Positions 7,263 through 51,122 of a stretch of 56,052 nucleotides of DNA are shown here, one piece after another. The notes beneath the pieces are model-generated. The model saw nothing but the letters and a program-made list of their open reading frames with translations, was not told where the DNA came from and did no database searches. Position 1 is the stretch's first letter, and each line of letters starts with the position of its first letter. Made by a program: the position numbers and the translations under genes. The stretch is from positions 1-56,052 of the IMG/VR virus record IMGVR_UViG_3300005764_000021. One strand, 5' to 3'. This stretch comes from a virus (taxonomy: Duplodnaviria > Caudoviricetes).

Positions 7263-7349
7263 CCCTGCCTTGCCTCGCCGTGCCAGGCCCCACCCCGCCA
7301 AGCCCCGCCGTACCCCGCCGGGCCGCACCCCGCCTTGCCACGCCTTGCC
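7263..7349. repeat. CCNNR pentamer array 1 (17 units)
   Basis: CCCTG CCTTG CCTCG CCGTG CCAGG CCCCA CCCCG CCAAG CCCCG CCGTA CCCCG CCGGG CCGCA CCCCG CCTTG CCACG CCTTG CC; intergenic. Confidence 0.95.
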
Positions 7350-7366
7350 TGATTAACTGAAAAGGA

Positions 7367-7741
7367 ATGCCGATGACAAGCCACCGCAACAATCCGCTCT
7401 ACCAGGACCTCGCCCGGCATTTCCGCAATCGCCTGATCTGGCTCGTCGACGACGTTTTCGACACTTGCAAGCGAGTCGACATCGATAAAGATTCAGCGCT
7501 CGTCTTGGTCATGCGCGCAGTGATCAATCTCGCGACTGCCACCGCAATCAAGTGGGGAGCATCACGCGAAGACTGGCTCGATCTTTGTGATCAGTATTAT
7601 CGGGAGATGAGCAACCGGGAGAGAAGCAAAAATGAACGAAGACGAAAAGCCTCCACAGGATCCGCCGCCCGCGAAGAAGATGCCGAGCGGGCCCAAGCCG
7701 GAAGTCAATCATCACAATGGTCGTTCAAGAACCTGGGATGA
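7367..7741 (+). CDS. hypothetical protein
   Basis: AAAGGA SD; helical globular sequence; start may be 7373. Confidence 0.55.
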   Translation: MPMTSHRNNPLYQDLARHFRNRLIWLVDDVFDTCKRVDIDKDSALVLVMRAVINLATATAIKWGASREDWLDLCDQYYREMSNRERSKNERRRKASTGSAAREEDAERAQAGSQSSQWSFKNLG

Positions 7742-7823
7742 TCCGGTCGCGGGCAAAATCTCCGACGACCCGCTGCTCGACAAGCTGCTGAGAGAGCATC
7801 CCGAGCGCGATCCTAAAAAGTAA
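7632..7823 (+). CDS. hypothetical protein (63 aa)
   Basis: GGAG upstream; DDPLLDKLLREHPE C-terminus. Confidence 0.5.
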   Translation: MNEDEKPPQDPPPAKKMPSGPKPEVNHHNGRSRTWDDPVAGKISDDPLLDKLLREHPERDPKK

Positions 7824-8103
7824 GTTCGCAAAAAAAGTTTGCCCAGCAAACGCGCGTCATTTCACGGTGCGTTCTCGCATCGGCGCGCGAGTTGTCCGCG
7901 TCGCGCCTGAGTCAAGTTTCCGAAAATGCCAACTCGAGCCCGCATGCCATGCGGGTTTCTTGCACGCGACTCATGCTGAGTCGGAAAATCCAGAAAGTCG
8001 ATTTGCTACACTCGCTGCCGTTGCGTAGGAGGGACACGGCAACAAGAGGGCCCGACCGGCAAAAGCAAGCCGGGCCAAGTTCTTCCCAGGAGTGTCCTAG
8101 GAG

Positions 8104-8592
8104 ATGACCATGGCACGCAAAGTGAAACTCAGCAAGGGTGAGAAAGTGAACCGTGACATCGCGCGGTGGGAGGCTAAGCAAGAGGCCGCAGTGATCATGC
8201 TGCGGAAGTCCGCCGAGGAGCTGGTTCGGCTCCGACGCTGGCGCAAGCGAGAACTCGCACGAGAGACGAAGCGAGCGCTCGCAACGCCGAAACCACCGGA
8301 ACCCACACTGACCGACGGGCTAGACATTCCCGCTTCTTTGGCGCGAGATAATGAGCCTGTGGCGCGGCCGGGCCTGGCACCGCAAGGTGGGGCGCGGCTA
8401 GGTTGTGCAGGGCAAGGCAAGGAGGATCGGGCGAGGCGATTACAAACCTTGCCCGATCCGCGTTCGCCCGAGAAGCGTGCCGAGCGCCGGGCGGTCGAGA
8501 AGGAAGTCCGCCAAGCCGAGCTGACGGGCAAGCGGCGCAAGATGCCGCTCTCAGGTGCTGCCGCCGTGAAGCATATCCGGGAAACTCACTAA
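8104..8592 (+). CDS. basic hypothetical protein containing an in-frame pentamer array
   Basis: AGGAG SD; followed by an intrinsic terminator; contains an LDIPASLAR motif. Confidence 0.65.
   Translation: MTMARKVKLSKGEKVNRDIARWEAKQEAAVIMLRKSAEELVRLRRWRKRELARETKRALATPKPPEPTLTDGLDIPASLARDNEPVARPGLAPQGGARLGCAGQGKEDRARRLQTLPDPRSPEKRAERRAVEKEVRQAELTGKRRKMPLSGAAAVKHIRETH
8361..8422. repeat. GGYNN pentamer array 2 (12 units, 2 imperfect)
   Basis: GGCGC GGCCG GGCCT GGCAC cGCAA GGTGG GGCGC GGCTA GGTTG tGCAG GGCAA GGCAA GG. Confidence 0.85.
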
Positions 8593-8598
8593 CAAAAC

Positions 8599-8633
8599 GG
8601 GCTGCAGCTTTACGAGCTGCAGCCCTTCTTTTT
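8599..8633 (+). terminator. intrinsic terminator of the + strand region
   Basis: GGGCTGCAGCT-TTACG-AGCTGCAGCCC then TTCTTTTT, 6 nt after the stop. Confidence 0.9.
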
Positions 8634-8705
8634 ATGCTCTCGTCTTCAGGGTCAGGATCTTCGAGTGCCTCCTCGGCCCGTCGCATTTGGCATCACCTTC
8701 CTTTC

Positions 8706-8742
8706 AAAAAATAACCCGGCTGTGGACGACGTTCCAGCCGGG
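8706..8742 (-). terminator. intrinsic terminator of the late (-) operon
   Basis: CCCGGCTG/CAGCCGGG stem (8715-22/8735-42) followed on - by TTATTTTTT. Confidence 0.75.
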
Positions 8743-8792
8743 CTTAAGTTGGGACGTTAGACAGAGACTCAGTCAGTCTATCGGGCAGCGCC

Positions 8793-8966
8793 TCATCGGT
8801 GCAACGGCGGCCCAAAAACCTGCCACCCCAAAAGCAGAAACAGAATGAACAGCAGCACGGCATTGCCGCTGACCGCATAGGTGCCCGCGACCATGCCGAA
8901 GTGAGTCAAGAGGCCGAAGACCAACCACACAAGCATGAGGATCCAGTAGCAGAGACCAAGGGTCAT
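8793..8966 (-). CDS. 57-aa two-TM membrane protein (holin candidate)
   Basis: MTLGLCYWILMLVWLVFGLL...AVLLFILFLLLGWQVFGPPLHR; ATGA overlap; not in ORF track. Confidence 0.7.
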   Translation of the reverse strand: MTLGLCYWILMLVWLVFGLLTHFGMVAGTYAVSGNAVLLFILFLLLGWQVFGPPLHR

Positions 8967-14138: not shown

Positions 14139-14150
14139 TGCGATTTCTCC

Positions 14151-26826: not shown

Positions 26827-29800
26827 TTATTCTTCTCCGCCGCCGCTCATCGCTTTAGCTGCAGGCGGCCCTTGGCTCGTTGCTTCCATCTGTTGATGGC
26901 GATGCCACGGCACTTTCTTGAACGGCGCGCCCTGCGTGGTGCTCATCTGGCCTTTCGATTTGATATTCACGTCGACCCTGCCGCTGCCGCGTACCCGATG
27001 AAAGAACCGGCGCGACTGGACCTCGTCCAAGCGCCGCCGTTCTTCCTCTCCAACGGTGTGCGTGCCAGTCACAGTCATCGGTGGCGCTCGCCCGCCCGAA
27101 CCCATTACCGAAGTACTGAGTACGCGCATCGGCGGCGGCGTCGGCCTCGGTCGCGGCAATGGAGCACCAGGTCCAAGCTTCCAAAACGGACGACCCATGC
27201 GCACATTCTCGGCCGCCGCAGCAGCGCCTTGCGCACCGCCGGGGACTTTGGCTGCTGCCTCTGCTTCTCGCTGTCGCTGCAAGGTTTGAGCTAGCAATCG
27301 CTCTTCCATTGCACGATCACGACCAGGGACTGGCGCGCCCGTTGGTAGCTCCAACGTCGTTGTGGGGCCCGCAGTGCTGATGAGAGGTTGCGGTTGCCGT
27401 GCGGCTGTCGCGATTTGAGTTTCACGAGCCTTTTGATCTTGCGCCTTTAATGCAGCCAGATGCTCTGGCCCAAATAACGTATCAATCGAGAAATGCCCGG
27501 TGTCTTTGGTGCGCCAGTGCTCGCCGCCACTCATGCCCCACTTTTGTTCGAGCGCGTTGAGTAATCCGGGGTTCTGGTCAATCCACCGTCGCACGTCAGG
27601 CGCTACGACATCCCGCTTAAGCTGCGCCCAATCTACTGCCATCCCTATAGGATGCTGTGAGGCATTACCTAACCGCGAACCAAAGCCACCGAGCGATTTG
27701 ACCGGAGCACCGGCGGCGATCAAATCGTTAAAGAAGCCCTCGAACTGCGCAGCGGCCCTGGCATTGACAGTGACTCTCTCGCCATTAGCCAACGTGACCG
27801 TTCGTCTCTCGCCGGTTAAAGGGGTTCCCGCAGGCACATTAAAACGACCGCCCGCAGTACCGCGCGGCGTGATGTCGCCCTGCATGGTTGGAACGCTGAG
27901 AAGGCTTACTGCCCCGGCGGCTGTTGCGGTAGGGCCGCCTGTTGTCACCGTCCCGGTCGCGCCGCCTTTTTTTGCTGGCAGATATTGCTGCTGATACCAT
28001 AGCTGCGCTTGTCGCCCGCGACCGATATCGACGCCGTAACGCTCGCCGCTCGGTGAAACATAAGTGACGACGCCGCCGCCGAGGCCCGCAGCGGGTTTGC
28101 CAACCGGCATCAGCGGCCACCCTGGCGCTTGGCTATAGTTGCCGGTCGCGCCGCCTGAAACGTCTGAACCGCCAAGAACAGCATCGACCTCACCGCTTCG
28201 CGTTGCGAGTTCGTTGCCGGAAAATTGCCTGTTATTCATTATTCTGTGCGTTCTGGCCGGGAAGAATTTCTGGTCAGCGAGAATTTGCTTGATGGTTTTC
28301 CCTTCGCTCTTGGCGGCATTCATTACGGATTCAAGAAACGCGACTCTGCCTTGAGAACTGCTATCGTCTTCTGCATCAGCGGCGGCCATCAACCGTCGCC
28401 GCGTCTCCGGGTCTTTCAATTCTTCCGCAAACCCCTTGCGCATGTCGGCGAGCGAATTGTAGGTCTCGTATGAGGCGGGCGGTGCGCCATCGCCGCCGCC
28501 GGTGCCGCCGCCGGTGCCGCCGCCATGTCGACCGGCACGTCCGCCGCCGCGTGTCGCTCTGCCGTAAGGACCGAGCCCACCGGCAGGTCCAGGTCCGGCA
28601 GGTCCGCCGCCGCCCCCTCTGCCCAAGCCGAGAGGTCGCGCGCCCGTGAACGCGCCACCACCGCCAACGCCGCCGCCGCCACCACCGCCAACGCCGCCGC
28701 CAATGCCGCCGCCTGCTGGCACCTCCTCGCCCGACAATATTCGATTGGCGCGCGACAACTGGTCGACCAGCTCCTTGGTCTCCTTGTTCTCTTGTTGCAT
28801 CAGATCGCGGCGCTCGACAGTGCCGGGAGATGGCTCGCCATGCAGTTGCTCAACCCACGGGATATCCGGTTGCCATCGGTTCTTGGGATAATCGCCAGTG
28901 AAGCCTTGGACGCCGCCGGTAAAGTCTTCAGTGCTGACGAGCTGCTGCGGCTTGTTCGGCCCTGCCGACCACCAACTGCCAGCGCGTTTTTGTTTCCAGT
29001 AGTCCTGTAATTGCCTGAAACCTTCCGGCCCAGGCTTGAGCTTCTCGCCCTCTTTCGGACCACCCGGTGGGAATGCTTCGCCCGGCTTGCTCGGTGCCAA
29101 TTCCCTGGCCTTGAAGTTTTTGAGTAGGTTCTCAAGGATCACATTGGCAGCGGATAAGCCCTTGCCAAATTCGGTCTCCATTAGATTCGTTGAAAGGATT
29201 TGAACGATCTCTCGCCATTTCTCGGCGACCTTTGCTTGCTTGTCGGCAATGTCCTCTGCCGCTTTCATCTCCCGTTCCAATATCTTCATTCGCTCCATGG
29301 TAATTTCGTCGATTGGCTGTCGCAGCCTGCGGAAAAGATTAGGAGCGTTCATGCTTTTGTAGATGTCCTCCATCATGGCGGAGGCCTGTCCCGGGGCAAC
29401 CTCCAAGGCCCGTTTTTCAAAGTCTTTAATATATTTCTGCGTCGCTTCGAATAGTTCGGCTGGCTTAGCTTGCAGCTTGTCAAAATCTCTTCCGTAATCT
29501 TCCACAATCTGCCGAAGAGCGGCATCGTCCGCTCGTGAAGCAATCTGGCGTAGCTCTTGGATCAGTTGGCCGCCCTTGCGCGCGGACTCTATTCTGAAGT
29601 GGACGAACTCCCTTTCTGCCTCTTCTCTACTCCAGCCGACACGTCGCGCGAGATTGCCGATCGCATCGATGACCGATGGATGCACCTGGGCCTGTCTTGC
29701 GGCATCGCCGATATCGAGCAACTCTTTGGAAACGCTCGACAGCGCCCGCGACAAGCTCAGCACGGCCAACCCCATCGATCCCGCCGCCGCGCCAGCGACG

Positions 29801-33499: not shown

Positions 33500-33613
33500 G
33501 GCGGTTCTCCATGCGCCCACCGCAAAGGCACGAGACCGCAAACGTGGTCGGCGCGGCGAGCCCGTGCGGTACGGGCTTTTCGGCGGCCAGACCTAGCCGC
33601 GCCGGTTGCTTTG

Positions 33614-38114: not shown

Positions 38115-39529
38115 CAGTTCGTTTCTTCGTTGAACTGCTGGAACAGGCTGCGCAGTTCGAGCGCGGGCCCGTGCGTGCCGTCGGACATGACCGGAGTTGC
38201 GGTGTAGTGGACGCGGTCGAGCTTCCAGCTCCTCAACGTCGGAGCCGGTGCACCTGGCTTGCCGTCACTACCGGCCGGGCCTGGCGGCCCGCGTTCGCCC
38301 TTGGGACCAGCGATGCCACGCCCGCCCTGGCGGGCAATCATTTTCCAGCCATCGCCCGGCAGTGCTCCCGGATTATCGCGTCGCGCAATGAATGCCGCCC
38401 CGTCGGACACGACAATATCAAGTGCACGATAGTTTTCTTTGGCATCGTAAGTATCGCGGACCGTAGGCGAGACCGCATCTCGTCCGGCGGCAGCGACGCA
38501 AATCCAGTCGAATGTCGCGCCGGGGACCGAACCGGTGTCCTTGAGTGCTTGATAGGTGTTGTTGCCATGGACGACGATCTCGCCTTCATACGTCACATCA
38601 TCTTGCGTCCATCGTTTTACCTTCGGCAGCTTGCCGGGCGCACCCTCGGCACCGCGCGCGCCGGTCTCGCCGCAAGCGCCGTTCACACCAGGCAGCCCGG
38701 GTAACCCTTGCGGACCCGTCGGGCCCGCTTCGCCTTTGTCACCTTTTTCGCCTTGCGGCCCTTTGAGGCCTTGCGCGCCTTCTTGGCCCGGGATGCCGGG
38801 GACTCCTTGTTCTCCGACATCTCCCTTTTCGCCTTTCTCACCGCGCTCACCTTGCTCACCACGCTCACCGACAAAGCCCGGCGGTCCCGGTGGCCCGATT
38901 TCGCCTCGGAGTCCTTGCGGACCTGCGGGACCGGCGTCGCCTTTCTCGCCGGGCATGCCAACGCCATCGGCTCCGCGAATGCCGGGGAATCCGACATCAC
39001 CTTGAGGGCCAATCGGCCCTTGCATTCCTTGCTCGCCGCGTGGGCCGGGCGGGCCCGCTTCACCACGCTCGCCGCGTAGCCCGGACGCACCAACCGCACC
39101 GACCAGGCCGCGCGGGCCTGCAGGACCTTGCGGCCCCGGCAGACCTTGCGGGCCTCGCGGCCCGTCGTCGCCGTCGACGCCGTTAATTCCATCGGCACCG
39201 CGTTCACCGTCACGCCCTGGCGGCCCTACGGATCCACGTTCGCCATCACGCACCAGCGCCAGGCGCTCGGCCACCGCGCGCGCGACCTCGGCGGGCAGAT
39301 TGACGGCCTCGCCGCGCATCTGCACCAAGATCGATTGCGCCCGCGCTTCGATCTGCGCCAGGAATGACTGTACCCGCGCTTCCATCTGCGCGTGCTCGCG
39401 CGTCCAAATCCGCTGCTGCTCGGCGAGCGCCAGCGCTAACGCGTGATCCCAAATTTCAGGATAGGTGCCGCCGATTGATTCGGGCGGCGTTGTCGAAGAG
39501 CCGTTGTGCTGCGCGTCTGACATCGTCAT
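38114..39529 (-). CDS. collagen-like head/neck fibre protein
   Basis: ~200 aa of Gly-X-Y repeats followed by two small aromatic repeats (YEGEIVVHGNNTYQA; YRALDIVVSDGAAFIA). Confidence 0.85.
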   Translation of the reverse strand: MTMSDAQHNGSSTTPPESIGGTYPEIWDHALALALAEQQRIWTREHAQMEARVQSFLAQIEARAQSILVQMRGEAVNLPAEVARAVAERLALVRDGERGSVGPPGRDGERGADGINGVDGDDGPRGPQGLPGPQGPAGPRGLVGAVGASGLRGERGEAGPPGPRGEQGMQGPIGPQGDVGFPGIRGADGVGMPGEKGDAGPAGPQGLRGEIGPPGPPGFVGERGEQGERGEKGEKGDVGEQGVPGIPGQEGAQGLKGPQGEKGDKGEAGPTGPQGLPGLPGVNGACGETGARGAEGAPGKLPKVKRWTQDDVTYEGEIVVHGNNTYQALKDTGSVPGATFDWICVAAAGRDAVSPTVRDTYDAKENYRALDIVVSDGAAFIARRDNPGALPGDGWKMIARQGGRGIAGPKGERGPPGPAGSDGKPGAPAPTLRSWKLDRVHYTATPVMSDGTHGPALELRSLFQQFNEETN

Positions 39530-40889
39530 CTAGTGCTTTCGGAGTTGGTGGCAGCGTTGCTGCCGGAATTCCCGGCGCTGGTGGTCCCGCCGGTGGCCCA
39601 GCCGGATGTTGTCCCGGCAACGCAGGCATTTTGGCCGCGAATGACAATGGAATTTGTTGCTGTTGCATACGTGGCTCGCTGCCTGCGATCACATCATCAA
39701 GACCTTCTTTGTTGCGTGCTTCGTTAGGCGAGAGAATTCCGCCGGTCACCGCTTCCTTGAGTCCACGGATGCGATCCTTGAAATCTGATCGCAGCAGCGC
39801 AGCGGTGTCGAATTCGATGAACTCGTCCGGTTGGCCCTTCAGACCGAGCAGCCGTTCAAAAGCTTGTTCGCAATGATTGAGACAAAAACCGAGTCCAGTG
39901 GCCAGCCAGAACGTCATAAGCGCTTCGGTCGAACCAGCACTGCCGCCGAGCCCGAGCACCGCGAGCGGTATGCGGAACACCAGCGCGATATGCCCTTCTG
40001 CGACTTTCATGATTTCCGCAATCTGTGCATCACGCGGCGGCGATGCCCACGGATTGACTTTGAGCCCATGTGTGAGGATGGGGGTCTTTCCCTGATTGAT
40101 CCCGCGTGACTGCTCGTCCCATCTGTCGCGCAGCGCCGTCACCGTCGCCAGATCGAGCTGCAGGTCGGTCGAGATCACCGCCGAGGGCCGCGCCTGGTTC
40201 TGATAGAACTGCTGCTGCTGCGAATTGATGGAATCGCTCAAAACGATGTCGCTCATGGCCGCGAGCAGCGGCGATTGTCCCCACAACGGGAACGGATTTT
40301 GGCGGCTGCGGTCGGCATGCAAGCGGATGTGCAAGACATCGCGTTGCGGCACCAGGAGCGGTTCTGCGTTAGTCTCGCGCTCGATCACGCTATTGCCGAA
40401 GAGCCGATAAAAAACTTCACCGTTGACAGCGAGCTGCGGCGCGCACAGCCGCGAGTCCATCAGGTGCAGCTCCGAGACCTCGAAGCGAGAGTTGCGCAGC
40501 GCGAGCGCATAAGCATTGCCGTCCAAATATAATTGTCGGACGGCGTTGAGCATAAAGTCCGACGCGGTCTGATACGCGTTCGGCTTGCGCAGGATCCGCG
40601 AGGCTGCGCTGTTGGTGACGCGAGTATTGCCGCCCTTGTCGTTGAGCCGCCACTGATCGCCTTGGCACATGGCGACGGTCTGCGCGTATGCGCTGACACA
40701 CGCTTCGACCATCGCCGAGCGTGCGGGCGATGGAATGACGTTATAACCGAGCTGCCAAAAATTCGTCGGCGAGCCATCGGGCAACCAACCACCCGAAAGT
40801 GGCAGATAATATGGGCCGCTGCGATATCCTCCCTCGACGGCTTTTGCCGCCCAGCGCAGTCCGCCAGCTACAAGCGAGCGCGCTCCCAT
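39456..40889 (-). CDS. portal protein, HK97 family
   Basis: KPNAYQTASDF, LDGNAY, VLHIR, GQSPL, FRIP, LSPNEARNKEGL. Confidence 0.95.
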   Translation of the reverse strand: MGARSLVAGGLRWAAKAVEGGYRSGPYYLPLSGGWLPDGSPTNFWQLGYNVIPSPARSAMVEACVSAYAQTVAMCQGDQWRLNDKGGNTRVTNSAASRILRKPNAYQTASDFMLNAVRQLYLDGNAYALALRNSRFEVSELHLMDSRLCAPQLAVNGEVFYRLFGNSVIERETNAEPLLVPQRDVLHIRLHADRSRQNPFPLWGQSPLLAAMSDIVLSDSINSQQQQFYQNQARPSAVISTDLQLDLATVTALRDRWDEQSRGINQGKTPILTHGLKVNPWASPPRDAQIAEIMKVAEGHIALVFRIPLAVLGLGGSAGSTEALMTFWLATGLGFCLNHCEQAFERLLGLKGQPDEFIEFDTAALLRSDFKDRIRGLKEAVTGGILSPNEARNKEGLDDVIAGSEPRMQQQQIPLSFAAKMPALPGQHPAGPPAGPPAPGIPAATLPPTPKALDDDVRRAAQRLFDNAARINRRHLS

Positions 40890-40923
40890 TCACGTTGGAT
40901 CCATGCTAACGATTTCAGTGTCT

Positions 40924-41030
40924 GGCCCGGCGTGGCAGGGCGGGGCGGGGTTGGGCCTGGTCCGGCGAGGCGGGGTGTGGCAAGGCAAGGCAGGGAGGGA
41001 GCACCGTTTAACGACGGTGCTCCCGTATTT
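40924..41030. repeat. GGYNN pentamer array 3 (14 units) + hairpin
   Basis: Array 40924-40993; stem GGGAGCACCGT-TTAACG-ACGGTGCTCCC 40997-41024; then GTATTTTT. Confidence 0.95.
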
Positions 41031-41051
41031 TTGTATTATGCAATTGCATCG

Positions 41052-41163
41052 GGCCGGGCGGGGTACGGTGTGGCGCGGCCAGGCAAGGTGTGGTGCGGCA
41101 TGGCGGGGCGTGGCGAGGTATGGCAAGGAGGGAGCGCCGTCACAAGCGGCGCTCCCGCATTTT
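41052..41163. repeat. GGYNN pentamer array 4 (15 units) + hairpin
   Basis: Array 41052-41126; stem GGGAGCGCCGT-CACAA-GCGGCGCTCCC 41130-41156; then GCATTTT. Confidence 0.95.
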
Positions 41164-41164
41164 A

Positions 41165-41380
41165 TCACCCAGGCTTCACTTGCCGGGTCTGATAGGTCTG
41201 GGCGGCGGGCTTTTTCTCGGCTTGCATTGCTTTGCTGCCGAGATGCGATTGCTCCCGCGCCTTCGCGTTGGCTTCCTCGAATGGATCCGGTCCCGATCCG
41301 TCGTCTTCGTGTTCGAGAATATGCTCGCCCAGTGCGGCGCGATCATTCTCATCCTGTGTGGGTGTAGGTCTCGGAGGCAT
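41165..41380 (-). CDS. small protein following the major capsid gene
   Basis: AAGGGAG SD; PRPTPTQDENDRAALG. Confidence 0.7.
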   Translation of the reverse strand: MPPRPTPTQDENDRAALGEHILEHEDDGSGPDPFEEANAKAREQSHLGSKAMQAEKKPAAQTYQTRQVKPG

Positions 41381-41450: not shown

Positions 41451-43853
41451 TTAGGACCAGGTTACGTTCTGGGTCCACGCAACCGTGCCCGCGCGCCGTT
41501 GAATCCAATTCAAAGGCATCACCATCCTTAAGGCGATACTATCTGTTTGGAATAGCGACCTTTGGGGAGCTGCGACCGTGCTTGGAGACGCCACCAATTC
41601 AAGTGGGGTCGTATCTTCCATGTGGAGAGTCGCCTGGTCCGAAGTTTCTAGCCTCGGAGCCCCGCCGCCAACTACGACAAAGTCCGCGGCGTCGACGAGG
41701 ATCATTGTCTTCGCTGGCACCGTTGCCGAGTCGATTACCGGCACCGTATTGAGTGTTCCGCCGCGAATCTCCTCGCGGAACGGGAAGATGCCGGTGTTGG
41801 TCGCCTGCGTCAACGTCACTGCGAGGATGTCCGACGGGTTCATCAGGAACACCGGCGAACGCAGATTGCCGTAGGTACTCACCGTGAGCGCACCGATGAG
41901 CGCCTTGATGTCGCCGATCAAGGCCGCCATGCCGCCGCCCGCCGTCGCCGTTGTCACGGTGACGCCGTTGAGCAGCCCGGCGGGCCGAACCGCCGTCGCC
42001 GCGTTCGCGTCGATCAGCACGCTGTCGACTGCAACGCTGGTGTCTTGCTGGATCGCCTCGCGAATCAATCCCTCGATTGCAGGGATGGAATGATCCGCCA
42101 TCTCACGGGTCCACACGCTGATGACCGCGAGTTTCTTTGGCACGACCGTCTGCGAGGTGAACGCACCTTGCCGCACGGGAATCGCGAGACCTTCGCCGAC
42201 GAACGAGCCTGCGATGGTTGGCGTGCGTGAGCGGGTCGGAATGATGATGCGTCCGGTGTTACCGAAGTTCAGCGTCATTCCTTTTGCTGAGAGTCGCGTG
42301 AGGATCGCGGCGGGCATTAAAAGCGGCATCAGATCGGCGTAATCTGTCTGCACCAGCTCCTGGGCCCAGCCCGCGACTGTCGTGATCGCGGGTGCCGAGG
42401 CCGCACGCAGAATCAGCTCGCACGAGATTTTGGTCTCGTCGTCGCCGTACTGCGGACGTTGCTCCGCGATCTTGAGCCGGGTCTCCTCCAGCGATTTACC
42501 CCACTGCTTGGCGAAGTGTGCGACCGCGCCAGCCCGCACGAGGTAATCGACGTAATCGACCTGATCACGGCGACTCTTCTTGGCCGTTGCGAAGATCGGA
42601 GCGGCTTTCGCGGGCTCCGGCGGCGGCGGCGGCGTGAACACGGTCATCGCGCGGCTCGCCGCGTGCCCGTTGCCGCCATTCACAGACTTGGCCAACAGCC
42701 GCTCCGACTCCGTCAACGCATTGAGCTGCTTCTCGAGCCCGGCGATGGTGGTGTTGAGGTCTGTGGCCTTCTGCATCTGGTCATCGCTGATGTTGGTTTG
42801 ATCAACCGACTCCCAGTGCTCTTCGAGTGCGTCCTTGTTCTCGTTCAGGAGAGCTTGGACGGCAGTGATACGTTCGGAAAGCGGCGTCATGACGCGGCTC
42901 CCATTCTTACGAGACGTTTTGGCATGCTTGCCAGTGAGCCCACGCCGCTCGACCTGGTCTCTATTGCCATGCTTGGCGAAAACCAGGTCCATTGTCGCAG
43001 GACTAATGCCCAGCGATTTGGAAACCGCCAGCGCATTTGCGTTAGCCGGGATTGAAACCAGCGAGGTTTCGACCAGCTCGGCTTTAAGGTATTTGCGACC
43101 GCTGAACGGATTCTTCTTGTCCAGCGGTTCGCTTTCGATATCGCGGAAGCCGACCGAGACGGCCTTTAAGATACCTGCCTCGATTAGCTTTCGAATTTCA
43201 TCGATACGGTTTGAGGTGCCCTCCGGTGCCATTATCAGCTTGCCGCGCAAAGCCCCTTTATCGACCTTTAATCCATCCCATCTGCCGATCGGAAACGAAG
43301 GATTATGATTAAACAATGCGACCGGATTTTTCCTGAACGAGGCGATATCCCAGCCATCGGCCTTGATGATGTCACCCATCCGGTCGATGCTTTCATCCGA
43401 TAGCACGAAGTCCATTCCTTGCACGGTCTCGGCGTGAGTTTTTTGAATAACGCGATGCATGCCGGACGCTCGTTCCTGCGAATCCTCCCATGCCATGCGG
43501 CACAGGTTCTCGGCGCGGTCGGGGTCATCTTCCATACCCCATTCGTCGGCGAGTTCGTCAGTGCATCGGTCCATGAAATCGCTCTCGGATTCGCCCTCTT
43601 CGGGGTCCGGCACGTCGCGATCAACTTGATCGTCATCTTGCTTTGCCGTCACGCGTGGCGCGCTCGCGCCGAGGTCGGCATCGGCGCTCTTCGGTGCGGA
43701 GCCGCCGTGGGCTTCGCGCCAGGCGTTGAAGCACATCGCGACGGCTTGCTCTTGTGTGCGATCTTCCGGCGCGCCTGTGCCGTAGGCCTCGTGCATGCAG
43801 CGAGCCATGAACGCGTCTTGCTTTTCGTCCTTGCGTGGTTTGGGTAACGGCAT
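41451..43853 (-). CDS. prohead protease-major capsid protein fusion (HK97 fold)
   Basis: DRMGD...LFNHN...PIGRW...VSVGF...ETSLVSIPAN protease motifs; coiled-coil scaffold; FVGEG...PKKLA...SLFQTD capsid motifs. Confidence 0.95.
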   Translation of the reverse strand: MPLPKPRKDEKQDAFMARCMHEAYGTGAPEDRTQEQAVAMCFNAWREAHGGSAPKSADADLGASAPRVTAKQDDDQVDRDVPDPEEGESESDFMDRCTDELADEWGMEDDPDRAENLCRMAWEDSQERASGMHRVIQKTHAETVQGMDFVLSDESIDRMGDIIKADGWDIASFRKNPVALFNHNPSFPIGRWDGLKVDKGALRGKLIMAPEGTSNRIDEIRKLIEAGILKAVSVGFRDIESEPLDKKNPFSGRKYLKAELVETSLVSIPANANALAVSKSLGISPATMDLVFAKHGNRDQVERRGLTGKHAKTSRKNGSRVMTPLSERITAVQALLNENKDALEEHWESVDQTNISDDQMQKATDLNTTIAGLEKQLNALTESERLLAKSVNGGNGHAASRAMTVFTPPPPPEPAKAAPIFATAKKSRRDQVDYVDYLVRAGAVAHFAKQWGKSLEETRLKIAEQRPQYGDDETKISCELILRAASAPAITTVAGWAQELVQTDYADLMPLLMPAAILTRLSAKGMTLNFGNTGRIIIPTRSRTPTIAGSFVGEGLAIPVRQGAFTSQTVVPKKLAVISVWTREMADHSIPAIEGLIREAIQQDTSVAVDSVLIDANAATAVRPAGLLNGVTVTTATAGGGMAALIGDIKALIGALTVSTYGNLRSPVFLMNPSDILAVTLTQATNTGIFPFREEIRGGTLNTVPVIDSATVPAKTMILVDAADFVVVGGGAPRLETSDQATLHMEDTTPLELVASPSTVAAPQRSLFQTDSIALRMVMPLNWIQRRAGTVAWTQNVTWS

Positions 43854-43912
43854 GGCAGCCTCCCTCGCGCGCGAGATGCGCGACTAGCATCGGCGGGGAT
43901 TTGAAAGCCGAA

Positions 43913-44083: not shown

Positions 44084-46076
44084 GCTCGGCCTCGTATTTC
44101 GCCATCGACTTCTCGTAGTCGGTCGCCACATCCTTGGAGCGACCGCCCATGTATTTGTACAGCACCTTCTCCGGGTTCCACCAGGTGGCCTGCGCCGCCG
44201 CTGGTTCTAGCTTGATGCCCTGCGCCGCCAGCTTGCCGAGCGCCATGTTGAACACGCGAGTGATGTATTCGCGTTGTTCGGCCCCGCGCGGAGCCTCGAC
44301 CATCTTGCCGCCGTAGCTGTCGACGAAGCGCTCGGCGGCATAGACCAGCTCGCTCTTGCTGCGCGCGCCGGATTTGTATTCGGCCTGATGCTCGGCGTAG
44401 TTTTTCTCGTGCTCGTCGTAGACCTCGTTGGCGATCTTGTTGAGCGCTTCCATGCTAGCCGGTGCTCGACGGCCTTCCTCTTTGAGCGCGTTGCGCAGCC
44501 GGTCGGCGATTGGCTCCATGTCAGGCTGACCGACGCCGGTGTTGGTCATGCGGCCCCAGGCGCGCATGAACCAGATGTCCATCGTCAGCGGCTTAAAGTT
44601 GCCGTTGAGGTTCTGATAGAAGCCGAGACCGATCTTCGGGCCGAGCACGGCCGAGCCGTTGACGACATCGTCCATCGATGTTCTGCCGACCTTGTAGCCG
44701 GTGATCTGCTTCAGCTCGCGCACGGTCATCTCCTTGTTGAAGAATGTGCGCGTGCCGTCGAGACCGAACTTGGCCACAAATTTGTTGAGCTTTTCCATGT
44801 TGCCGTTGATGCCGGAATTCTTGACCTTCATGTCGGTGGGGAATTGTCCCGTCCGGCTGAAATGGCTGTAGGCCTCCTCGGCCAGGCGCACGTTGCTGTC
44901 GACGACTTCGCCCTGACTGGTGACCGCCAGCGCCGCGATGTAGGCGAAGTGCTTGTCCGGGTCGCGCGCGATCTCGGGGTGCATGCGCTCGGCGATCTTC
45001 ATCGCCGCTTTCATCTTGTCCGAGTACCAGGTCGGGGAGCTGTGACCGTTGTTCAGTCCGGCCTTGAGATCGGCAGCGATAGCGTCGGCCAGATAGTTGT
45101 CGGTCTCGGGCGTCGACTCTTCGAGCGAGGATTTGCCGAAGCGCTCTTGCAGCACTTTGCCAGCGCGGTCGTTGAGCTGCTGCGCGACGTCGTGGACGGC
45201 AATCGAGTTCGGCTTGGCCGCCGTCGTGCCGATCATGATGCTGTCGGCGGTGAGCGGGTGGGGCCGCGCTAGCTCTTCGCCCCACCGATTATGAATCCGG
45301 TCCCAGGTTGCTTGACTTCCTTGAACCGGGGATTGGCGGATAATTTGCTCATAAGCTCGTCGCGCGTCGTCGCGCTGCTCGCGGTCGCTGCCGGTGTCTT
45401 GCTGGGTGCCGATGAATTCCGCGCGTCCGTGCGTGTATTCAACGGTGGCTGTCCCGGAGGCTTTGGCAACTGCGTCATGGAGCTTTCCATCGAGGTCTGC
45501 GACGTAGACGGTCGCGCCCTTCTCATGGGGAACCAGGGTGTGGAATGCAAGCCCGTCGGCCAGCAAACCCTCGTGGATTTTTTGGATATCGCCGGGGGCC
45601 TCGAACTTGTAGAGCACCGCCGGGCCCGCAGCTTCGCCGCGAAACAGCAGCACTTGCTTCTGGTCGCCGAGGTGGCCCTTCATGGCCCCGGCCAGGCGTA
45701 GCTGGTCCCAGCTCGCACCCTTGGCGACCGACATTACCGAATTCTCTGCACCGTCCTTCCAGGCCCCGATGATGTCGTGGTCCTCGGCCTGGATCCCGAG
45801 TGTGCGGTCGATCTCGCCCGAGGCCTGCTTGAGCGCGCCCTGCCGCTCGCTGCCGAGCGCCTGGTGCGCGAGGTTCAATCCGAGCGTCGCGGTGTTGGGC
45901 GAGACAAACTCGATGCCCTCCTCGTGTGCTCCCGGCCGCGAGCCCTCGAACCTGCCGGTGGTCGGGTCCTGGATGTAGTCGACGTCGCGCTTCTCGTGCC
46001 ACGCCTTGTCCCCTGCGGGATGCCAGTCGAATTTATCGTCATCGCCCCAATGAAAGCGCTCGGCCCGGAATGTCAT
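44061..46076 (-). CDS. two-domain protein; C-terminal HhH-GPD/DNA-glycosylase-like domain
   Basis: WY...LAVTSQ...N...GPKIG...FYQN...TMDIWFMR...QATWW; N-terminal DPTTGRF leader. Confidence 0.7.
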   Translation of the reverse strand: MTFRAERFHWGDDDKFDWHPAGDKAWHEKRDVDYIQDPTTGRFEGSRPGAHEEGIEFVSPNTATLGLNLAHQALGSERQGALKQASGEIDRTLGIQAEDHDIIGAWKDGAENSVMSVAKGASWDQLRLAGAMKGHLGDQKQVLLFRGEAAGPAVLYKFEAPGDIQKIHEGLLADGLAFHTLVPHEKGATVYVADLDGKLHDAVAKASGTATVEYTHGRAEFIGTQQDTGSDREQRDDARRAYEQIIRQSPVQGSQATWDRIHNRWGEELARPHPLTADSIMIGTTAAKPNSIAVHDVAQQLNDRAGKVLQERFGKSSLEESTPETDNYLADAIAADLKAGLNNGHSSPTWYSDKMKAAMKIAERMHPEIARDPDKHFAYIAALAVTSQGEVVDSNVRLAEEAYSHFSRTGQFPTDMKVKNSGINGNMEKLNKFVAKFGLDGTRTFFNKEMTVRELKQITGYKVGRTSMDDVVNGSAVLGPKIGLGFYQNLNGNFKPLTMDIWFMRAWGRMTNTGVGQPDMEPIADRLRNALKEEGRRAPASMEALNKIANEVYDEHEKNYAEHQAEYKSGARSKSELVYAAERFVDSYGGKMVEAPRGAEQREYITRVFNMALGKLAAQGIKLEPAAAQATWWNPEKVLYKYMGGRSKDVATDYEKSMAKYEAEHAVPQAA

Positions 46077-48952
46077 GCAACCAGCCTTGCAACAAAGCGC
46101 TCCGTGTTGGGCGCTTCGCGCGGTTCATGGCTAACGATCTCTAGCCGGGAGTTGCGCGGAAACAATATCTCCGCTTCCTCGGGGAAATTCGAAAGCGAGC
46201 CAACTGGAAACGCCGGACTGCCTTTCGGTACTTGGATTTCGATGTAGCTCCCCGGCTTATCGATCTTCGACTTGTCGAGCGTCGTGCTCATGAAGGCCGG
46301 ATCACTGAATGAGCCCGCATGATCCAGAATATCCTGCGTCCGCTGCCAGCCCACCGTTCGATAGACCGTCACATCGTGCGGTAGCTTGTGGGCGCTCACC
46401 AGCTCATCAAGATTCTCGGTCTCGGCTGACACGGGACCGGAGCCAAGTCGCGCGGGCGCGTTGAACAGGTCGCTGCTCAGCGTATACATATCGAGCGCCT
46501 GCTTCTGTTCGAGCGGAATATCGCTCACCCCCATTTCATCGCGCAGCGCATCCACCTCGCGGGTCGATGCCGTCACGTTGCGGTCTTCACCGCCAAGCGC
46601 CATCGAGCCCAAGTCATCGCCGCCGTCGCCAGCCGTCCACTTTCCAGCTTCATCGCGCGGTTGGTCGGGATCGAACTTTGCGTACCAACTTTTTTTCTTC
46701 GGAGTCTTTTTTTTGAGCGGCGTCACACCGTCAATGGTCTGACCAAGCCACGGATTGGCACGATCCATGTCGAAGAGCCGACTGATCAAGGCCAACGTCG
46801 ATTTGCTGTTTGGCTTGTCGTCGAGTGCCTTGGCTGCCTCTGCTTGCGTCCGCTGCTCCTCCAAAAACATGTTCGCCTGCCGCAACGCGAACTGCCCCTC
46901 GCCGACGGCAACGCCGACACGACCGATTGCGCCGTCGCGCATGTCACCGACGGCGTAAACACCGGGAAGCGGTGTCTCCAGGTTTTTATTGGTTTGGATT
47001 CTGCCGCCCTTGGCGACCGTCACATCCGCAGGGACCCACTTAGTGTCCGGCATGCTGCCGATGAATTCGCCCAGCGCTTTGATCTGCAAAACTTTACCGC
47101 CGACGGTTTCCATGCTTACTGGATTGCCGCGCGCGTCACGATTGAGTTGCTTGATGCTGTCGCTTTCAATCACCGTGATCTTTGGATTGTTGCGCAACGC
47201 CTCAACCTGATAATCGCTCATGCTCTCCACGATGGGTGAGCGCGCCAGCAGGTAGACATGATCGCAGTGCTGCGCACATCCGAGTGCCGCTTGAGCTGCG
47301 CCATTCGAGCCGCCAATCACGCAGACCCTGCCGCCTGCGCCTGCCTTCGCCAACGCCTTGCCATCTCCGATAATCACGCCCGGTCCCTCTGAGCCGGGGA
47401 AGCTCATGCGGCGAAATTCAACACCACCGGCCAAAATGACCGTGCGACTGTCGATATGCTCACCATTGGACAGCGTGAGATGCTTCAGTCCGGTCTTTGG
47501 ATCATAGGTCATCCCCGTGACCCGGATGCCGAGCTTGGCCTCTGCTCCCAAGCGCTGCGCTTGCTCATACATGTTCTGAGTCAACCGTTCGCCGGTTACT
47601 CCAACCGGGAAGCCAGGGAAGTTCTCAATGCGAGAAGAAAACTTGGCTTGCCCGCCAGCGACCGCAGTGGCCTCGACGACCAGCGTATCGAGGCCTTCCG
47701 CTGCGCCATTGATGCTGGCGGCCAATCCACCGGGGCCAGCGCCGATAATGGTCACATCGCGCGGACCACCCGGTAAACCAATTCCACCGGGCCCACCGGG
47801 ATCGGCGTGCAGACCGTGCATCTCCTTAACGATAGCTTCCAACTGATCTACCAGTGCCTGCGACTCGGGGCCGTCTGGCTTGTCCACATGCGCCAGCAAT
47901 TGGTTGTTGATCTTTGCCCACTCGCTCTTGAGCGCTTTGAATTTCTCAACATCGCCCGGCACCAAACCATAATTGCCAGCCTCGCCGCCGCCAGCGCCGC
48001 CGTCGCTGGCGAACTGCCCACCTTCCGGCGATCCAGCAGGTTCGCGCGGATGCTGCGACTCGTCCCACGCGCGCAACAGCTCCAGCAGCATCTTGCCGAA
48101 CGCGGTTTCGCTCGCGGGCTTCTTGCCCTTGCCGCCGGTGAAGATTTCGGCTTCTTCGAGCAGCTTGGTGATCGAGATGTTAACTCTAGCGATCTTGATC
48201 TTGGTGTCGTTGGTCAAGTTGCCGTCGGCGGCATCGAGCCCGAGCTTGCCCGCCCAGTGATGGTGACCGTCGAGGATGTAGTCGTCCTTGGAAATGATCA
48301 GCCGCTTGGCACCCTGGTTGTCGGGCTCTTTCTCCAGGTGGGCCATCACTGCCGCGACCTTGGCACCGTTCAACTCGTTCTGGGTCGCGCGCAGGTTGGC
48401 GGCAAATTCCCTTTCCTTTTTGATTTCGTAACCCTTCCGCTCCAAGTATTTGCGGAACTCTTTGGTCTGCTCATCAGTCAGTTGCGGCATCTGCGCGCGC
48501 GGGATGCCTTTGGTCTCGGCGCAGAACAGGTTGGTGCCCGCCACGCTCACATCGCAGAGATTGAACACCGGCGCTTGCTGTCCTTGCTTCTGCCAGCGCT
48601 GGGCTTCCTCACCCAGCTTCTTGATCAGCGTCGAGACTTGTTTCGGCTGCGTCAGCTCGACCTTGCGGCCTTCGTACAGTGCGCGCTGCGCGTCAGCGAC
48701 CTTCGAGGTGTGGATGACGCCGTGCGCATCGACATAGGCGTCCTTGCTGTAGCCCTCGCCGGGATGCTCGCGCTCAGCATCTCCTCCACCGCCGCCGCCA
48801 TCACTCGTGAACTGTCCGCCTTCCGAGGATCCTGCGGGTTCGCGCGGGTGAGCCGATTCGTCCCAGGCGCGCAGCAGCAGCTCGAAGCTCGGCAGCGGTG
48901 CCGAGAGATCGCGCCAGACCTCGGCGGTCATATCCGCAAATAAGCCAGCCAC
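46073..48952 (-). CDS. polyvalent protein: ParB/Srx-like + thioredoxin-reductase-like flavoprotein + ADP-ribosyltransferase
   Basis: ISKDDYILDGHHHWA; IIGAGPGG...GGQA...IENFPGFP...GVYAVGD; VYR...FMSTT...EAEILFPR (R-S-E triad). Confidence 0.85.
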   Translation of the reverse strand: MAGLFADMTAEVWRDLSAPLPSFELLLRAWDESAHPREPAGSSEGGQFTSDGGGGGGDAEREHPGEGYSKDAYVDAHGVIHTSKVADAQRALYEGRKVELTQPKQVSTLIKKLGEEAQRWQKQGQQAPVFNLCDVSVAGTNLFCAETKGIPRAQMPQLTDEQTKEFRKYLERKGYEIKKEREFAANLRATQNELNGAKVAAVMAHLEKEPDNQGAKRLIISKDDYILDGHHHWAGKLGLDAADGNLTNDTKIKIARVNISITKLLEEAEIFTGGKGKKPASETAFGKMLLELLRAWDESQHPREPAGSPEGGQFASDGGAGGGEAGNYGLVPGDVEKFKALKSEWAKINNQLLAHVDKPDGPESQALVDQLEAIVKEMHGLHADPGGPGGIGLPGGPRDVTIIGAGPGGLAASINGAAEGLDTLVVEATAVAGGQAKFSSRIENFPGFPVGVTGERLTQNMYEQAQRLGAEAKLGIRVTGMTYDPKTGLKHLTLSNGEHIDSRTVILAGGVEFRRMSFPGSEGPGVIIGDGKALAKAGAGGRVCVIGGSNGAAQAALGCAQHCDHVYLLARSPIVESMSDYQVEALRNNPKITVIESDSIKQLNRDARGNPVSMETVGGKVLQIKALGEFIGSMPDTKWVPADVTVAKGGRIQTNKNLETPLPGVYAVGDMRDGAIGRVGVAVGEGQFALRQANMFLEEQRTQAEAAKALDDKPNSKSTLALISRLFDMDRANPWLGQTIDGVTPLKKKTPKKKSWYAKFDPDQPRDEAGKWTAGDGGDDLGSMALGGEDRNVTASTREVDALRDEMGVSDIPLEQKQALDMYTLSSDLFNAPARLGSGPVSAETENLDELVSAHKLPHDVTVYRTVGWQRTQDILDHAGSFSDPAFMSTTLDKSKIDKPGSYIEIQVPKGSPAFPVGSLSNFPEEAEILFPRNSRLEIVSHEPREAPNTERFVARLVA

Positions 48953-49500
48953 GAATCCTCAATCGCGGTGATGGGCCAACCCTGACTGCTTAACCGGTCG
49001 AGTACTTCCGAGACTTGGACCGCCGGGTTGTTGTAATCGTGCCAGACGATGACACCACCCGGACGGATAAGCGCACGGGATAGAAAGCTGTCGTGTTCAA
49101 CAGCCGCCCGCGAATGATCGCCATCAATGAAGCAGCAATCGCAGGGTTCGACGTCTTGTGGCCCCACGGCGAGCGAGCCGCGTTCGCGGACAAGAAGCCA
49201 GAATCGTGGATCAGGAGCGGCGTAGACACCGGCCGTTCGAGGGACTTCGCTGCGCTGACAAGCGAGGGTTGGCTCATGGCCGGGCGGGATATCGATGCCG
49301 ATATATCTTTCGATTCCCGGTATCTCTCTCAAGATTATCGACGCGGTGCGACCTTCATTCACACCAAATTCGATCACCACCTTCGGCCGGACGCTGCGCA
49401 CCAATGTGACCAGCAGTCCGGTTTCGACGTCGTTGAGATACAAATTGTGAAACGGCCGGATGCGCGCGACTTCGATGCTATCGCGAGGAACCGTCAGCAC
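48928..49500 (-). CDS. class I SAM-dependent methyltransferase (Methyltransf_24-like)
   Basis: VIEFGVNEGRT, FIDGDHS, GGVIVWHDY. Confidence 0.9.
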   Translation of the reverse strand: MLTVPRDSIEVARIRPFHNLYLNDVETGLLVTLVRSVRPKVVIEFGVNEGRTASIILREIPGIERYIGIDIPPGHEPTLACQRSEVPRTAGVYAAPDPRFWLLVRERGSLAVGPQDVEPCDCCFIDGDHSRAAVEHDSFLSRALIRPGGVIVWHDYNNPAVQVSEVLDRLSSQGWPITAIEDSWLAYLRI

Positions 49501-49681
49501 GTGCTAAGCTCTTTGATGTCCCCGTGGTTCAGGGCGAAAACCGTGTAGGTCGATATCCGGGAGGCAAGCCCCGGATGAACTTGCCCGACCGGCTAAGCGA
49601 ACGCCTCTCGCGATCAGCGCCAGTATCGCTTAGGCATCCAGTGTTGGTTTCTCAGTCTATGGCTGAGATGCGTGAGCGAGA

Positions 49682-50908
49682 TCACGGGGACACTTGAGCT
49701 AGCGCGCTCGCCCAATCGCCGGGCGATGTCTGTTTGCACAGCGTGACATTCTCGTACCACTTCTTGCGCCAGCGCCATGAGTGCCAGTGCGAGAGCAAGA
49801 GCTTGACGTTGGGATGTCCGATTGCGCCCGCCAGGTGCACGGCCGCCGTGTCCACCGATATGATCTCGTCCAAGCACAACATTAGTGCGGCGCAGTCGCC
49901 GAAGTTCTCGAACCCGAACGTGCGGGTGCGTCCCGTTCGAGCGCTCGGACGTGGCAACTGCGCCTGCACGCTGTAAATCTCGGCCTCGGGATCGAGATGT
50001 GCGAGCAGCTCCTCGACGTCGATCTCGCGCGGATAGTCGCCGATGCTCGGCTTGCCGATGCTCCACGCGATGCCGATGCGCTTGCGCGAGCTCGAGCTCG
50101 AGCCCAGCCGCTCGCGCCATTCGGCAACGCGCTCGGGATCGACGTCGAGATAGGGACCTGACAAGCACGCATCGGGCGAGACGTACAAGCGGCCGAGGAG
50201 ATGCAGCAGCGGACAGAAATAATCGACGGGCTCGCCGGACGGCATGTAGTCGTCGAGCAGCCCGTCCAGCTCGCGCGGCAGATCGAGCGACACGATTGCG
50301 CCCATGGCTTCGAGCATCGGGACGTAACGCAGGCACATGATGCTGTCGCCAAAGCCGTGCGCGTGCAGCAGCAGGATGCGCTTGCCGTTGATGTTCTCGC
50401 CGCGCCAGGGCCGCATGCCCGCATCGAGCGCAGCGCGGACCTGTGGCCTCATGAATGGCGCGAAGTCCTCGCACTTCTCGTACTGCTCGAAGCCCGTGCG
50501 CCAATCCCCCGCCGCCAGCAGCAGCATCGCGCGATTGAAGCGCGCGCGCAGCGTCGGCGCGATGGCTATGGCTGCATTCGCGGCCTGCAGCGCGGCCTCG
50601 ATCTGGTTCTCGCGGTAGAGCGCGACGACGCGGTTGAACTGCAAAAGGTAGTCGTCGATGTCGATTGATGGATCGTTGGTCAGCTTGCGCTGACCAATCG
50701 CTTTGCCGTTGAGCGCGACGATGATATTGCCCTCGGGCAGCGTGGCCTTGTGGCCGTTCTTGCTGCGGACCTCCAATATTTCGCCGTCCAGCGTCAGCCC
50801 GCGCCAACCATAGTCGGTGGTTTCGTGCCTGATCACCGGATCGAGCTGCGGCGGCTCGCCGAAGTCCGCGAAGATGGTCTGAGGCCGATCTGTTCGTGAT
50901 TCATTCAT
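49682..50908 (-). CDS. TPR-containing glycosyltransferase (GT-B, family 9-like)
   Basis: TPR-like helices; WRGE...HGFGDSIMCLRY; IGIAWS; LDEIISVDTAAVHLAGAIG; WRW...WY. Confidence 0.85.
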   Translation of the reverse strand: MNESRTDRPQTIFADFGEPPQLDPVIRHETTDYGWRGLTLDGEILEVRSKNGHKATLPEGNIIVALNGKAIGQRKLTNDPSIDIDDYLLQFNRVVALYRENQIEAALQAANAAIAIAPTLRARFNRAMLLLAAGDWRTGFEQYEKCEDFAPFMRPQVRAALDAGMRPWRGENINGKRILLLHAHGFGDSIMCLRYVPMLEAMGAIVSLDLPRELDGLLDDYMPSGEPVDYFCPLLHLLGRLYVSPDACLSGPYLDVDPERVAEWRERLGSSSSSRKRIGIAWSIGKPSIGDYPREIDVEELLAHLDPEAEIYSVQAQLPRPSARTGRTRTFGFENFGDCAALMLCLDEIISVDTAAVHLAGAIGHPNVKLLLSHWHSWRWRKKWYENVTLCKQTSPGDWASALAQVSP

Positions 50909-51016
50909 CGTTTGTTGCCGGTGTTTTTGTGCAACGTCGTTTGGTCAGATCAAACGACCCTCCACGCTAGAGATACTCGCCTGGTCGCTCACTTCCACGT
51001 AAGATTACGATCTTGC

Positions 51017-51122
51017 GGCTGGGCGTGGCGCGGCTGGGCTTGGCACGGTCCGGTAGGGCTGGGCAAGGCTGGGCAGGGCAAGGCAGGGGGAAAGCGCCGT
51101 TCACAGCGGCGCTTTCCATTTA
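51017..51122. repeat. GGYNN pentamer array 5 (14 units) + hairpin
   Basis: Array 51017-51086; stem GGAAAGCGCCG-TTCACAG-CGGCGCTTTCC 51089-51117, 2 nt from the capsid-paralogue stop codon. Confidence 0.95.

Follow-up and report, generated by a model that had tools for sequence, protein, structure and literature searches.

VIPR, first described in 2026, is an RNA-guided DNA-silencing system of phages, built from the RAMP-like protein Vipr and guide RNAs termed vrRNAs (bioRxiv 10.64898/2026.04.26.720920). According to the main description given there, vrRNAs consist of 9–16 GGY/NN (YNNGG) units with fixed GGY and hypervariable NN and carry a structured 3′ tail; the NN dinucleotides recognise double-stranded DNA, and every third target base is skipped. 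Vipr protomers are described as forming a filament along the RNA, which sequesters GGY and presents NN (10.64898/2026.04.26.720927). The VIPR preprints apply an NN-match cut-off of 80%, and the description of the system reports no self-targeting above it (10.64898/2026.04.26.720920). Solo vrRNAs are likewise already in print, from satellites and from 346 VIPR-null enterobacterial phages; their self-match is described as lower than their non-self match, and satellite solo vrRNAs are said to redirect the Vipr of the helper phage (10.64898/2026.10.15.759431). Almost all functional work on VIPR concerns a single E. coli phage and a single Pseudomonas prophage. Here we analyse IMG/VR virus record IMGVR_UViG_3300005764_000021 over its whole length of 56,052 bp (hereafter the window), which belongs to an uncultured soil myovirus and contains five arrays of the pentamer GGYNN (Y, C or T; N, any base) that very probably are genes for VIPR guide RNAs.

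An earlier note on this DNA, made from its letters alone, had read the arrays as a binding platform for an oligomeric nucleic-acid-binding protein and as the best candidate for an undescribed cis-regulatory system. The system is no longer undescribed, since VIPR is the subject of preprints of 2026 (10.64898/2026.04.26.720920, 10.64898/2026.04.26.720927, 10.64898/2026.10.15.759431), and the arrays most likely give rise to guide RNAs that act in trans.

Results

Scanning the window for runs of GG[CT]NN, with 100 dinucleotide-preserving shuffles of the window as null, recovered the five arrays where the earlier note had placed them, with 70 of their 72 units conforming to GGYNN. The ten-unit form of the pattern matched 24 times in the window and never in the shuffles (mean 0.00, maximum 0, n = 100). 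All five arrays carry GGCAAGG at the same end when read in the GG orientation, as had been claimed, and the statement that the NN positions are free, with neither slippage nor codon effects as the explanation, was borne out as well: NN vary within and between arrays and are the informative part. On the GG strand, each array forms with its tail a cassette of about 105–115 nt, made of 9–14 variable units, a constant GGCAA-GGCAG handle and, in four of the five, a GC-rich hairpin. We number the arrays A1 to A5. A1 (repeat tract 40924–40993, plus strand, 14 units) and A2 (41052–41126, plus strand, 15 units) are placed between a capsid-protease fusion gene and the portal gene; in A1, the first 11 units are the guide and the last three (GGCAA GGCAA GGCAG) the constant handle. 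A3 (51017–51086, plus strand, 14 units) is placed just past a capsid-like gene. The vrRNA-like arrays A4 (8361–8422, plus strand, 12 units) and A5 (7265–7349, minus strand, 17 units) are divergent, with an early-region stretch of about 1 kb between them.

For decoding, NN was read as NNx, the last three handle units were dropped, and all positions on both strands were scored against shuffled-guide nulls (n = 200). Read in this way, the A1 guide is CCx GTx AGx GGx GGx TGx CTx CCx GAx GGx GTx, in which the codons of PVSGGWLPDG(V) can be read, a stretch near the beginning of the portal gene in a sister clade of soil phages. In a 401-kb set of 29 related records, the guide scored 20 of 22 in one (L143), 19 in three and 18 in another one, all at the same portal site, and none of the 200 shuffled guides reached 20 in this set. 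When IMG/VR was scanned for exact matches to units 1–10 of A1, 12 loci were obtained. Ten of them are portal homologues (61–68% identity) that are matched at the homologous site, in frame and with the skipped base in the wobble position, at 20–22 of 22 positions, including full 22/22 matches in L186 and L193; the remaining two loci represent a single unrelated sequence that has a stop in frame. The phage's own portal gene (39456–40889, minus strand; phrog_12, E 1.5e-70), whose start codon lies 35 nt from A1, reads PLSGGWLPDGS at codons 30–40 (40770–40802, minus strand). This copy of the target site is written CCA CTT TCG GGT GGT TGG TTG CCC GAT GGC TCG and scores 16/22, with mismatches at Leu CTT (guide GT), Ser TCG (guide AGY), Leu TTG (guide CTN) and Ser TCG (guide GT).

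The A3 guide, TGx GTx GCx TGx TTx ACx CCx AGx TGx AAx TGx, corresponds to the last ten codons and the stop of the capsid-like gene. This major-head-protein-like gene (51120–52292, minus strand; phrog_617, E 2.1e-15) has its stop codon 34 nt from the 3′ end of A3. At this site, its only two homologues in IMG/VR reach 19 and 18 of 22, and in L180 the match includes the TGA stop; one of 200 shuffled guides reached 19. An exact ten-unit scan of IMG/VR with A3 gave no hits. The phage's own copy of the site (GIAWLTPAWK*, 51120–51152, minus strand) scores 17/22, a value reached by 3 of 200 shuffles; lying 34 nt from the array and in frame, it is the unique best site within the 56 kb.

The best self sites of the five guides score 16/22, 17/22, 18/28, 16/24 and 13/18, all below 80%, and the own sites of A1 and A3 differ from the guide at 5–6 of 22 positions. 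One could nevertheless take these near-cognate portal and capsid-like sites as the real targets, with the RNAs tuning or timing the phage's own late genes. The closeness of the sites speaks for such self-regulation, as the single best A1 site in the 56 kb lies only 122 nt from its array and the A3 site is similarly near, and so does the A3 self score, which exceeds its null. However, relatives are matched better than self in both cases (20–22 versus 16 for A1, 19 versus 17 for A3), both self scores stay below the cut-off of the preprints, and the own A1 site does not rise above its null. We therefore regard self-regulation as very unlikely.

The earlier note had also proposed to follow the pattern across phage and host genomes, and a survey of IMG/VR links it to Vipr. 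The ten-unit pattern occurs in at least 136 IMG/VR loci with at least 294 unique arrays of at least eight units, most of them with varied NN. In the record of phage SUSP1, arrays flank two genes at 28031–29061. A phmmer search with the product of the upstream gene (195 residues) found homologues beside arrays in 72 of the 136 loci listed, and a hidden Markov model (HMM) built from those homologues found Vipr homologues in 87 of them; of the 80 loci that have 1.5-kb flanks, 63 were positive. One of the final two units is GGCAA, GGCAG or GGCAT in 176 of the 294 arrays listed; among the internal units, these three account for 19%. Among five larger contigs of portal relatives, two (G003 and G004) carry vipr together with arrays, which differ in style from those of the window and lack hairpins. 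When metagenomes were scanned with the small protein encoded at 335–565, the second gene of the window, 80 loci with 45–79% identity were obtained and no near-identical contig. On one of the contigs (L224), which has no other gene in common with the window, a complete VIPR locus lies about 2 kb upstream of the 335–565 homologue; there, at 1901–3239 of the contig, vipr is flanked by very long unbroken arrays of 41, 32 and 21 units without hairpin tails.

The tails identify the functional strand. A1 is followed by a 12-bp GC-rich hairpin and then a T-run (40997–41034, plus strand), which is terminator-like on the GG strand only, and the whole 113-nt A1 unit has a folding z of −4.9. The A2 tail (41130–41166, plus strand) has an 11-bp hairpin with T-run and shows compensatory changes relative to the A1 tail; the A3 tail (51089–51127, plus strand) has a 13-bp hairpin with T-run, and the A4 tail (8424–8459, plus strand) a 13-bp hairpin with one G-U pair and without T-run. 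A5 ends in GGCAA GGCAG GGA followed by TTTTTT. Stable hairpins are found after four of the five arrays and T-runs at the hairpins of three of the five (A1–A3). When the four hairpin tails were compared, 3 of 12 predicted pairs were kept by two-sided changes in at least one copy. The G-U pair occurs in a single stem, where the other strand would give an A-C mismatch. Since the T-runs are terminator-like only on the GG strand and the G-U pair fits only that strand, we conclude that the GG strand is the functional one; it is antisense to the neighbouring genes for A1–A3 and A5.

These results decide against a cis-acting role of the C-rich mRNA strand, whether as a platform for a ring protein like TRAP or as a site of Rho loading, which we now regard as highly improbable. 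It is true that, as the earlier note had stated, the sense strand of the adjacent genes is C-rich at four of the five arrays, that the periodicity is 3+2, and that array lengths of 62–87 nt are near a Rho footprint. But the hairpin T-runs and the G-U pair fit the GG strand, so that the C-rich strand can hardly be the functional one; the NN positions hold codon-level information on other genes, and the same grammar co-occurs with Vipr genes in the 87 viral loci given above. Moreover, arrays at orthologous sites in close relatives, which a cis platform would lead one to expect, are absent from all 27 portal-relative loci. Bacillus TRAP resembles the present case in being an oligomeric protein that recognises one trinucleotide in each 5 nt of RNA. 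No TRAP-like gene was seen, and no search aimed at one was made. It differs in acting in cis on the trp leader, in its uninformative spacers, in its motif, (G/U)AG instead of GGY, and in protein fold and function; here, the structured, terminator-ended strand is antisense to its neighbours for A1–A3 and A5. Of the proposed platform, the oligomeric protein can stay, as a 3+2 grammar is what polymerising Vipr is described to read (10.64898/2026.04.26.720927), while the cis-acting part has to be given up, since trans-acting guide RNAs are most likely.

In the 27 portal-relative loci no array occupies the orthologous spot, and the nearest relatives have there, in the gap between the major capsid protein (MCP) and portal genes, a terminator hairpin with a T-run on the sense strand, bounded by a small gene and the start of the portal gene. 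The vrRNA cassettes are thus lineage-specific additions at intergenic terminator sites. Lineage-specific insertion would also suit a mobile minisatellite, and GG every 5 nt could in principle form two-tetrad G-quadruplexes; a structural element of this kind (two-tier G-quadruplex or i-motif) or a minisatellite without guide function is nonetheless barely credible. Either would leave NN unconstrained, yet NN encode in-frame, wobble-skipped matches to conserved peptide motifs, and the units are not homogenised. Rho loading, G-quadruplex and minisatellite, all offered as alternatives in the earlier note, share this failure: none explains why phage-gene codons can be read, in frame, from the NN of two arrays.

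Taken together, the arrays have the unit grammar of vrRNAs, a handle and tail (with a hairpin in four of five), wobble-aligned targets of at least 80% for A1 and A3, and no self-target of at least 80%. A number of observations weigh against the assignment. First, Vipr itself was not found in the window: a Vipr HMM run on all six frames gave a best E of 0.16, hhalign of 278 window frames against Vipr a best probability of 3.9%, a genome search for vipr in the window 0 candidates, and an ESM Atlas comparison of the frames 7367–7741 and 8104–8592 between A5 and A4 no RAMP-like look-alike. The handle and tail-start pattern had 26 hits in IMG/VR, of which 0 had GGY units upstream and none had Vipr nearby. 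Second, neither a sigma-70-like promoter upstream of any array, on either strand, nor an RNA run containing the stretch among the runs listed was found. Third, two of the arrays deviate. A5 with its tail has a folding z of −0.24 and no strong hairpin, and A4 has two broken units (CGCAA and TGCAG) and lies inside the open frame 8104–8592, which looks coding by its third-position G+C content (GC3); A4 may be decaying. Fourth, A2, A4 and A5 have no target above null in the window or in relatives. Exact ten-unit scans of IMG/VR gave 0 hits each for A2 and A5, a scan of bacterial genomes gave 0 for A2, and a scan of genomes with units 5–14 of A5 gave 2, about the chance expectation; at these two hits the neighbouring units show little or no match, and one of the hits lies in low-complexity sequence. 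Finally, the own A1 score of 16/22 is within its null (132 of 200 shuffles reach it) and owes its meaning to the homology of the site with those matched in relatives; moreover, the four nearest relatives (69–72% portal identity, without arrays) share the mismatching codons and score 15/22. Because these codons are common to relatives without arrays, the state of the own clade need not be an evolved escape, and the guide separates two portal clades.

A complete locus, with vipr next to vrRNAs, was not found in the 56 kb of a record whose completeness is estimated at 77%. Since about a quarter of the genome lies outside the record, vipr may be located there; it is about equally probable that Vipr is encoded in the missing ~23% and that another element supplies it, as for solo vrRNAs. 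For the 56 kb available, the arrays match the working definition of solo vrRNAs given in the preprint, a contig without a Vipr hit (10.64898/2026.10.15.759431). A tail common to the vrRNAs of a Vipr-encoding element, as also expected of solo vrRNAs, was not seen, as the hits of the tail pattern lack vrRNAs and the arrays of G003 and G004 lack such hairpins. Using vap1 of SUSP1 as a single phmmer query, we found no relative in the window, which has to be read against the diversity of vap families.

With vipr lacking from the 56 kb, the vrRNAs could also be decoys that sequester the Vipr of a competing VIPR-positive phage or lead it astray, much as satellite solo vrRNAs are described to redirect the Vipr of a helper phage (10.64898/2026.10.15.759431), and three of the five guides are indeed without a phage target. 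We consider this role quite unlikely, as A1 and A3 have specific in-frame targets in the late genes of related phages, and none of the five guides scored above null against 77 vipr regions.

Guide RNAs aimed at late genes of relatives remain the preferred reading, and the position of A1 and A3 raises a further, rather unlikely, possibility: the guide genes might be allele-linked selfish cassettes, as each decoded vrRNA lies no more than about 125 nt from its own mismatched target allele. In a mixed infection, the only way for a rival to restore its portal or capsid-like gene would then be to acquire the resistant allele by recombination, and the guide gene along with it. T-even free-standing homing endonucleases adjoin the resistant allele of the site that they cut in relatives (marker exclusion), and the cassettes might be an RNA-guided counterpart of this or of a split gene drive, with Vipr possibly provided in trans. 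Both links join a weapon to an immune allele, so that recombinants rescuing the target co-inherit the weapon. The endonucleases, however, are proteins that cut DNA, whereas the window would encode guide RNA whose published effector only binds and represses. By rough arithmetic, the chance of a unique genome-wide best site within 150 nt of an array is about 0.6% per guide. A lone 15-unit array in an unrelated 105-kb viral contig (L063 905–1318) starts one base past the stop of a 112-aa frame, which holds an in-frame 20/24 near-match to the array's guide 159 nt upstream (p = 0.005). Against allele linkage, such a near-match beside the array was found for only 1 of 13 lone arrays (the one in L063) and 0 of 75 Vipr-linked arrays among the IMG/VR flanks listed, A2, A4 and A5 are without an adjacent near-cognate site, and the published effector is described to repress and not to cut (10.64898/2026.04.26.720920). 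The terms "homing" and "gene drive" are absent from the preprint on solo vrRNAs (10.64898/2026.10.15.759431).

The window is a complete IMG/VR record, linear and with a CheckV completeness estimate of 77%, and represents a genome fragment: it is without a terminal repeat and both ends cut frames, an open frame on the left (1–147, plus strand) and an HNH endonuclease frame on the right (55699–56052, minus strand). It belongs to a GC-rich (G+C 60%), contractile-tailed phage. Structural, tail and lysis genes occupy the minus strand from 10.6 to 55.4 kb; on the plus strand, the first ~8.6 kb hold a DpdA-like gene besides about 20 small ones. The A1/A2 region had no match among 50,697 phage records when searched by megablast and blastn, and no portal relatives were found in 185,579 bacterial and archaeal genomes. 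Identical stretches are present in soil-metagenome contigs from other studies, among them a 778-nt contig from a different study that spans 50811–51588, and thereby bridges A3, with 0 differences. Since identical independent contigs exist, the arrays are not an assembly artefact. In a run of 2024 (X4), the 14-kb stretch is represented by only two records of 151 nt, identical to 40857–41007 and 41034–41184 and covering the A1 and A2 cassettes, and one of 1077 nt; the latter has 34 nt in common with A3 (51055–51088) and then continues as another GGYNN array.

Further features of the window concern other functions. Major-head-protein similarity is seen in three minus-strand genes (41451–43853, 51120–52292 and 52717–53760), one of which is fused to a maturation-protease-like N-terminal part. 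The DpdA-like gene (5607–6776, plus strand; Pfam PF23859, E 2.7e-34; PHROG annotation queuine tRNA-ribosyltransferase) suggests that the phage DNA carries 7-deazaguanine modifications; genes for preQ0 synthesis were not seen in the 56 kb. An early gene (3665–4048, plus strand) has a superinfection-immunity protein domain (PF14373, E 3.5e-16), which predicts a second, protein-based exclusion function in the same phage. Within the structural block, a 959-residue protein (46073–48952, minus strand) combines a pyridine-nucleotide-disulphide oxidoreductase domain (Pfam E 1.1e-32) with a C-terminal ADP-ribosyltransferase-exoenzyme domain (Pfam E 7.6e-15); its gene is neighboured by a methyltransferase gene and a TPR/glycosyltransferase-like gene. 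The only Rfam match at gathering score in the window is an int-alpA RNA (33536–33603, minus strand; 40.9 bits, gathering score 35.8), which lies between the genes for tail sheath and tail tube, and the arrays are without a match. Directly after frame 8104–8592, a perfect 11–12-bp palindromic hairpin (8599–8625) has T-runs on both strands and resembles a bidirectional terminator.

Discussion

If the arrays are vrRNA genes, their action can be outlined with the help of the published accounts. Vipr protomers would polymerise on the RNA, clamp each GGY and present each NN; NN would pair with double-stranded DNA, with every third target base skipped, and the bound complex would block transcription, as the preprints describe these steps for known vrRNAs. 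Applied to this phage, the RNAs would switch off late genes in relatives that infect the same cell, while its own late genes would be spared. Self and non-self differ here by changes that the gapped code can see, namely between Ser AGY and TCN, between Leu CTN and TTR, and by a Val/Leu substitution. The window thus offers a natural worked example of VIPR from soil, in which the code is readable directly from sequence, and its decoded targets are essential structural genes of sister phages, not regulators, satellites or vipr.

A literature search on vrRNAs with portal returned nothing beyond the VIPR preprints, whose supplementary tables may list hairpin-tailed or dispersed vrRNAs. The layout may be new, with guide genes scattered antisense through the late operon and two of them beside a mismatched target allele. 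If it holds, with vipr possibly lacking, it suggests that vrRNA cassettes could spread and be selected as independent modules, which bears on how guide repertoires evolve in a system without known spacer-acquisition machinery.

Virus-borne mini-CRISPR arrays without cas genes target related viruses and rely on an effector encoded elsewhere. The arrays described here resemble them in being guide-only and aimed at relatives; they differ in effector family, in repeat architecture and in pairing, which is contiguous in the mini-CRISPR case. Solo vrRNAs are closer. They too are found on contigs without Vipr, match self less well than rivals and have wobble-aligned coding targets near the start or end of genes. 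Those of F5 satellites and phages are described as one or two units at the site of a vipr-vap1 deletion, whereas the window has five units elsewhere, and the targets described for solo vrRNAs are vipr, other vrRNAs, satellites and host repetitive extragenic palindromic (REP) elements, in contrast to the portal and capsid-like genes decoded here (10.64898/2026.10.15.759431). The Type II VIPR of SUSP1, which comprises vipr, vap1 and four vrRNAs, shares with the window the GGY/NN grammar, units of about 100 nt, a structured 3′ tail, a code that skips one nucleotide at wobble positions, targets in competing mobile elements and a lower self-match. As described, the SUSP1 vrRNAs flank vipr-vap1 in one locus and their tail is said to contain a pseudoknot (10.64898/2026.04.26.720920), while in the window, where neither vipr nor vap was found, the units end in plain hairpins, three with T-runs, and are spread as five cassettes over 44 kb, three of them antisense inside the late operon.

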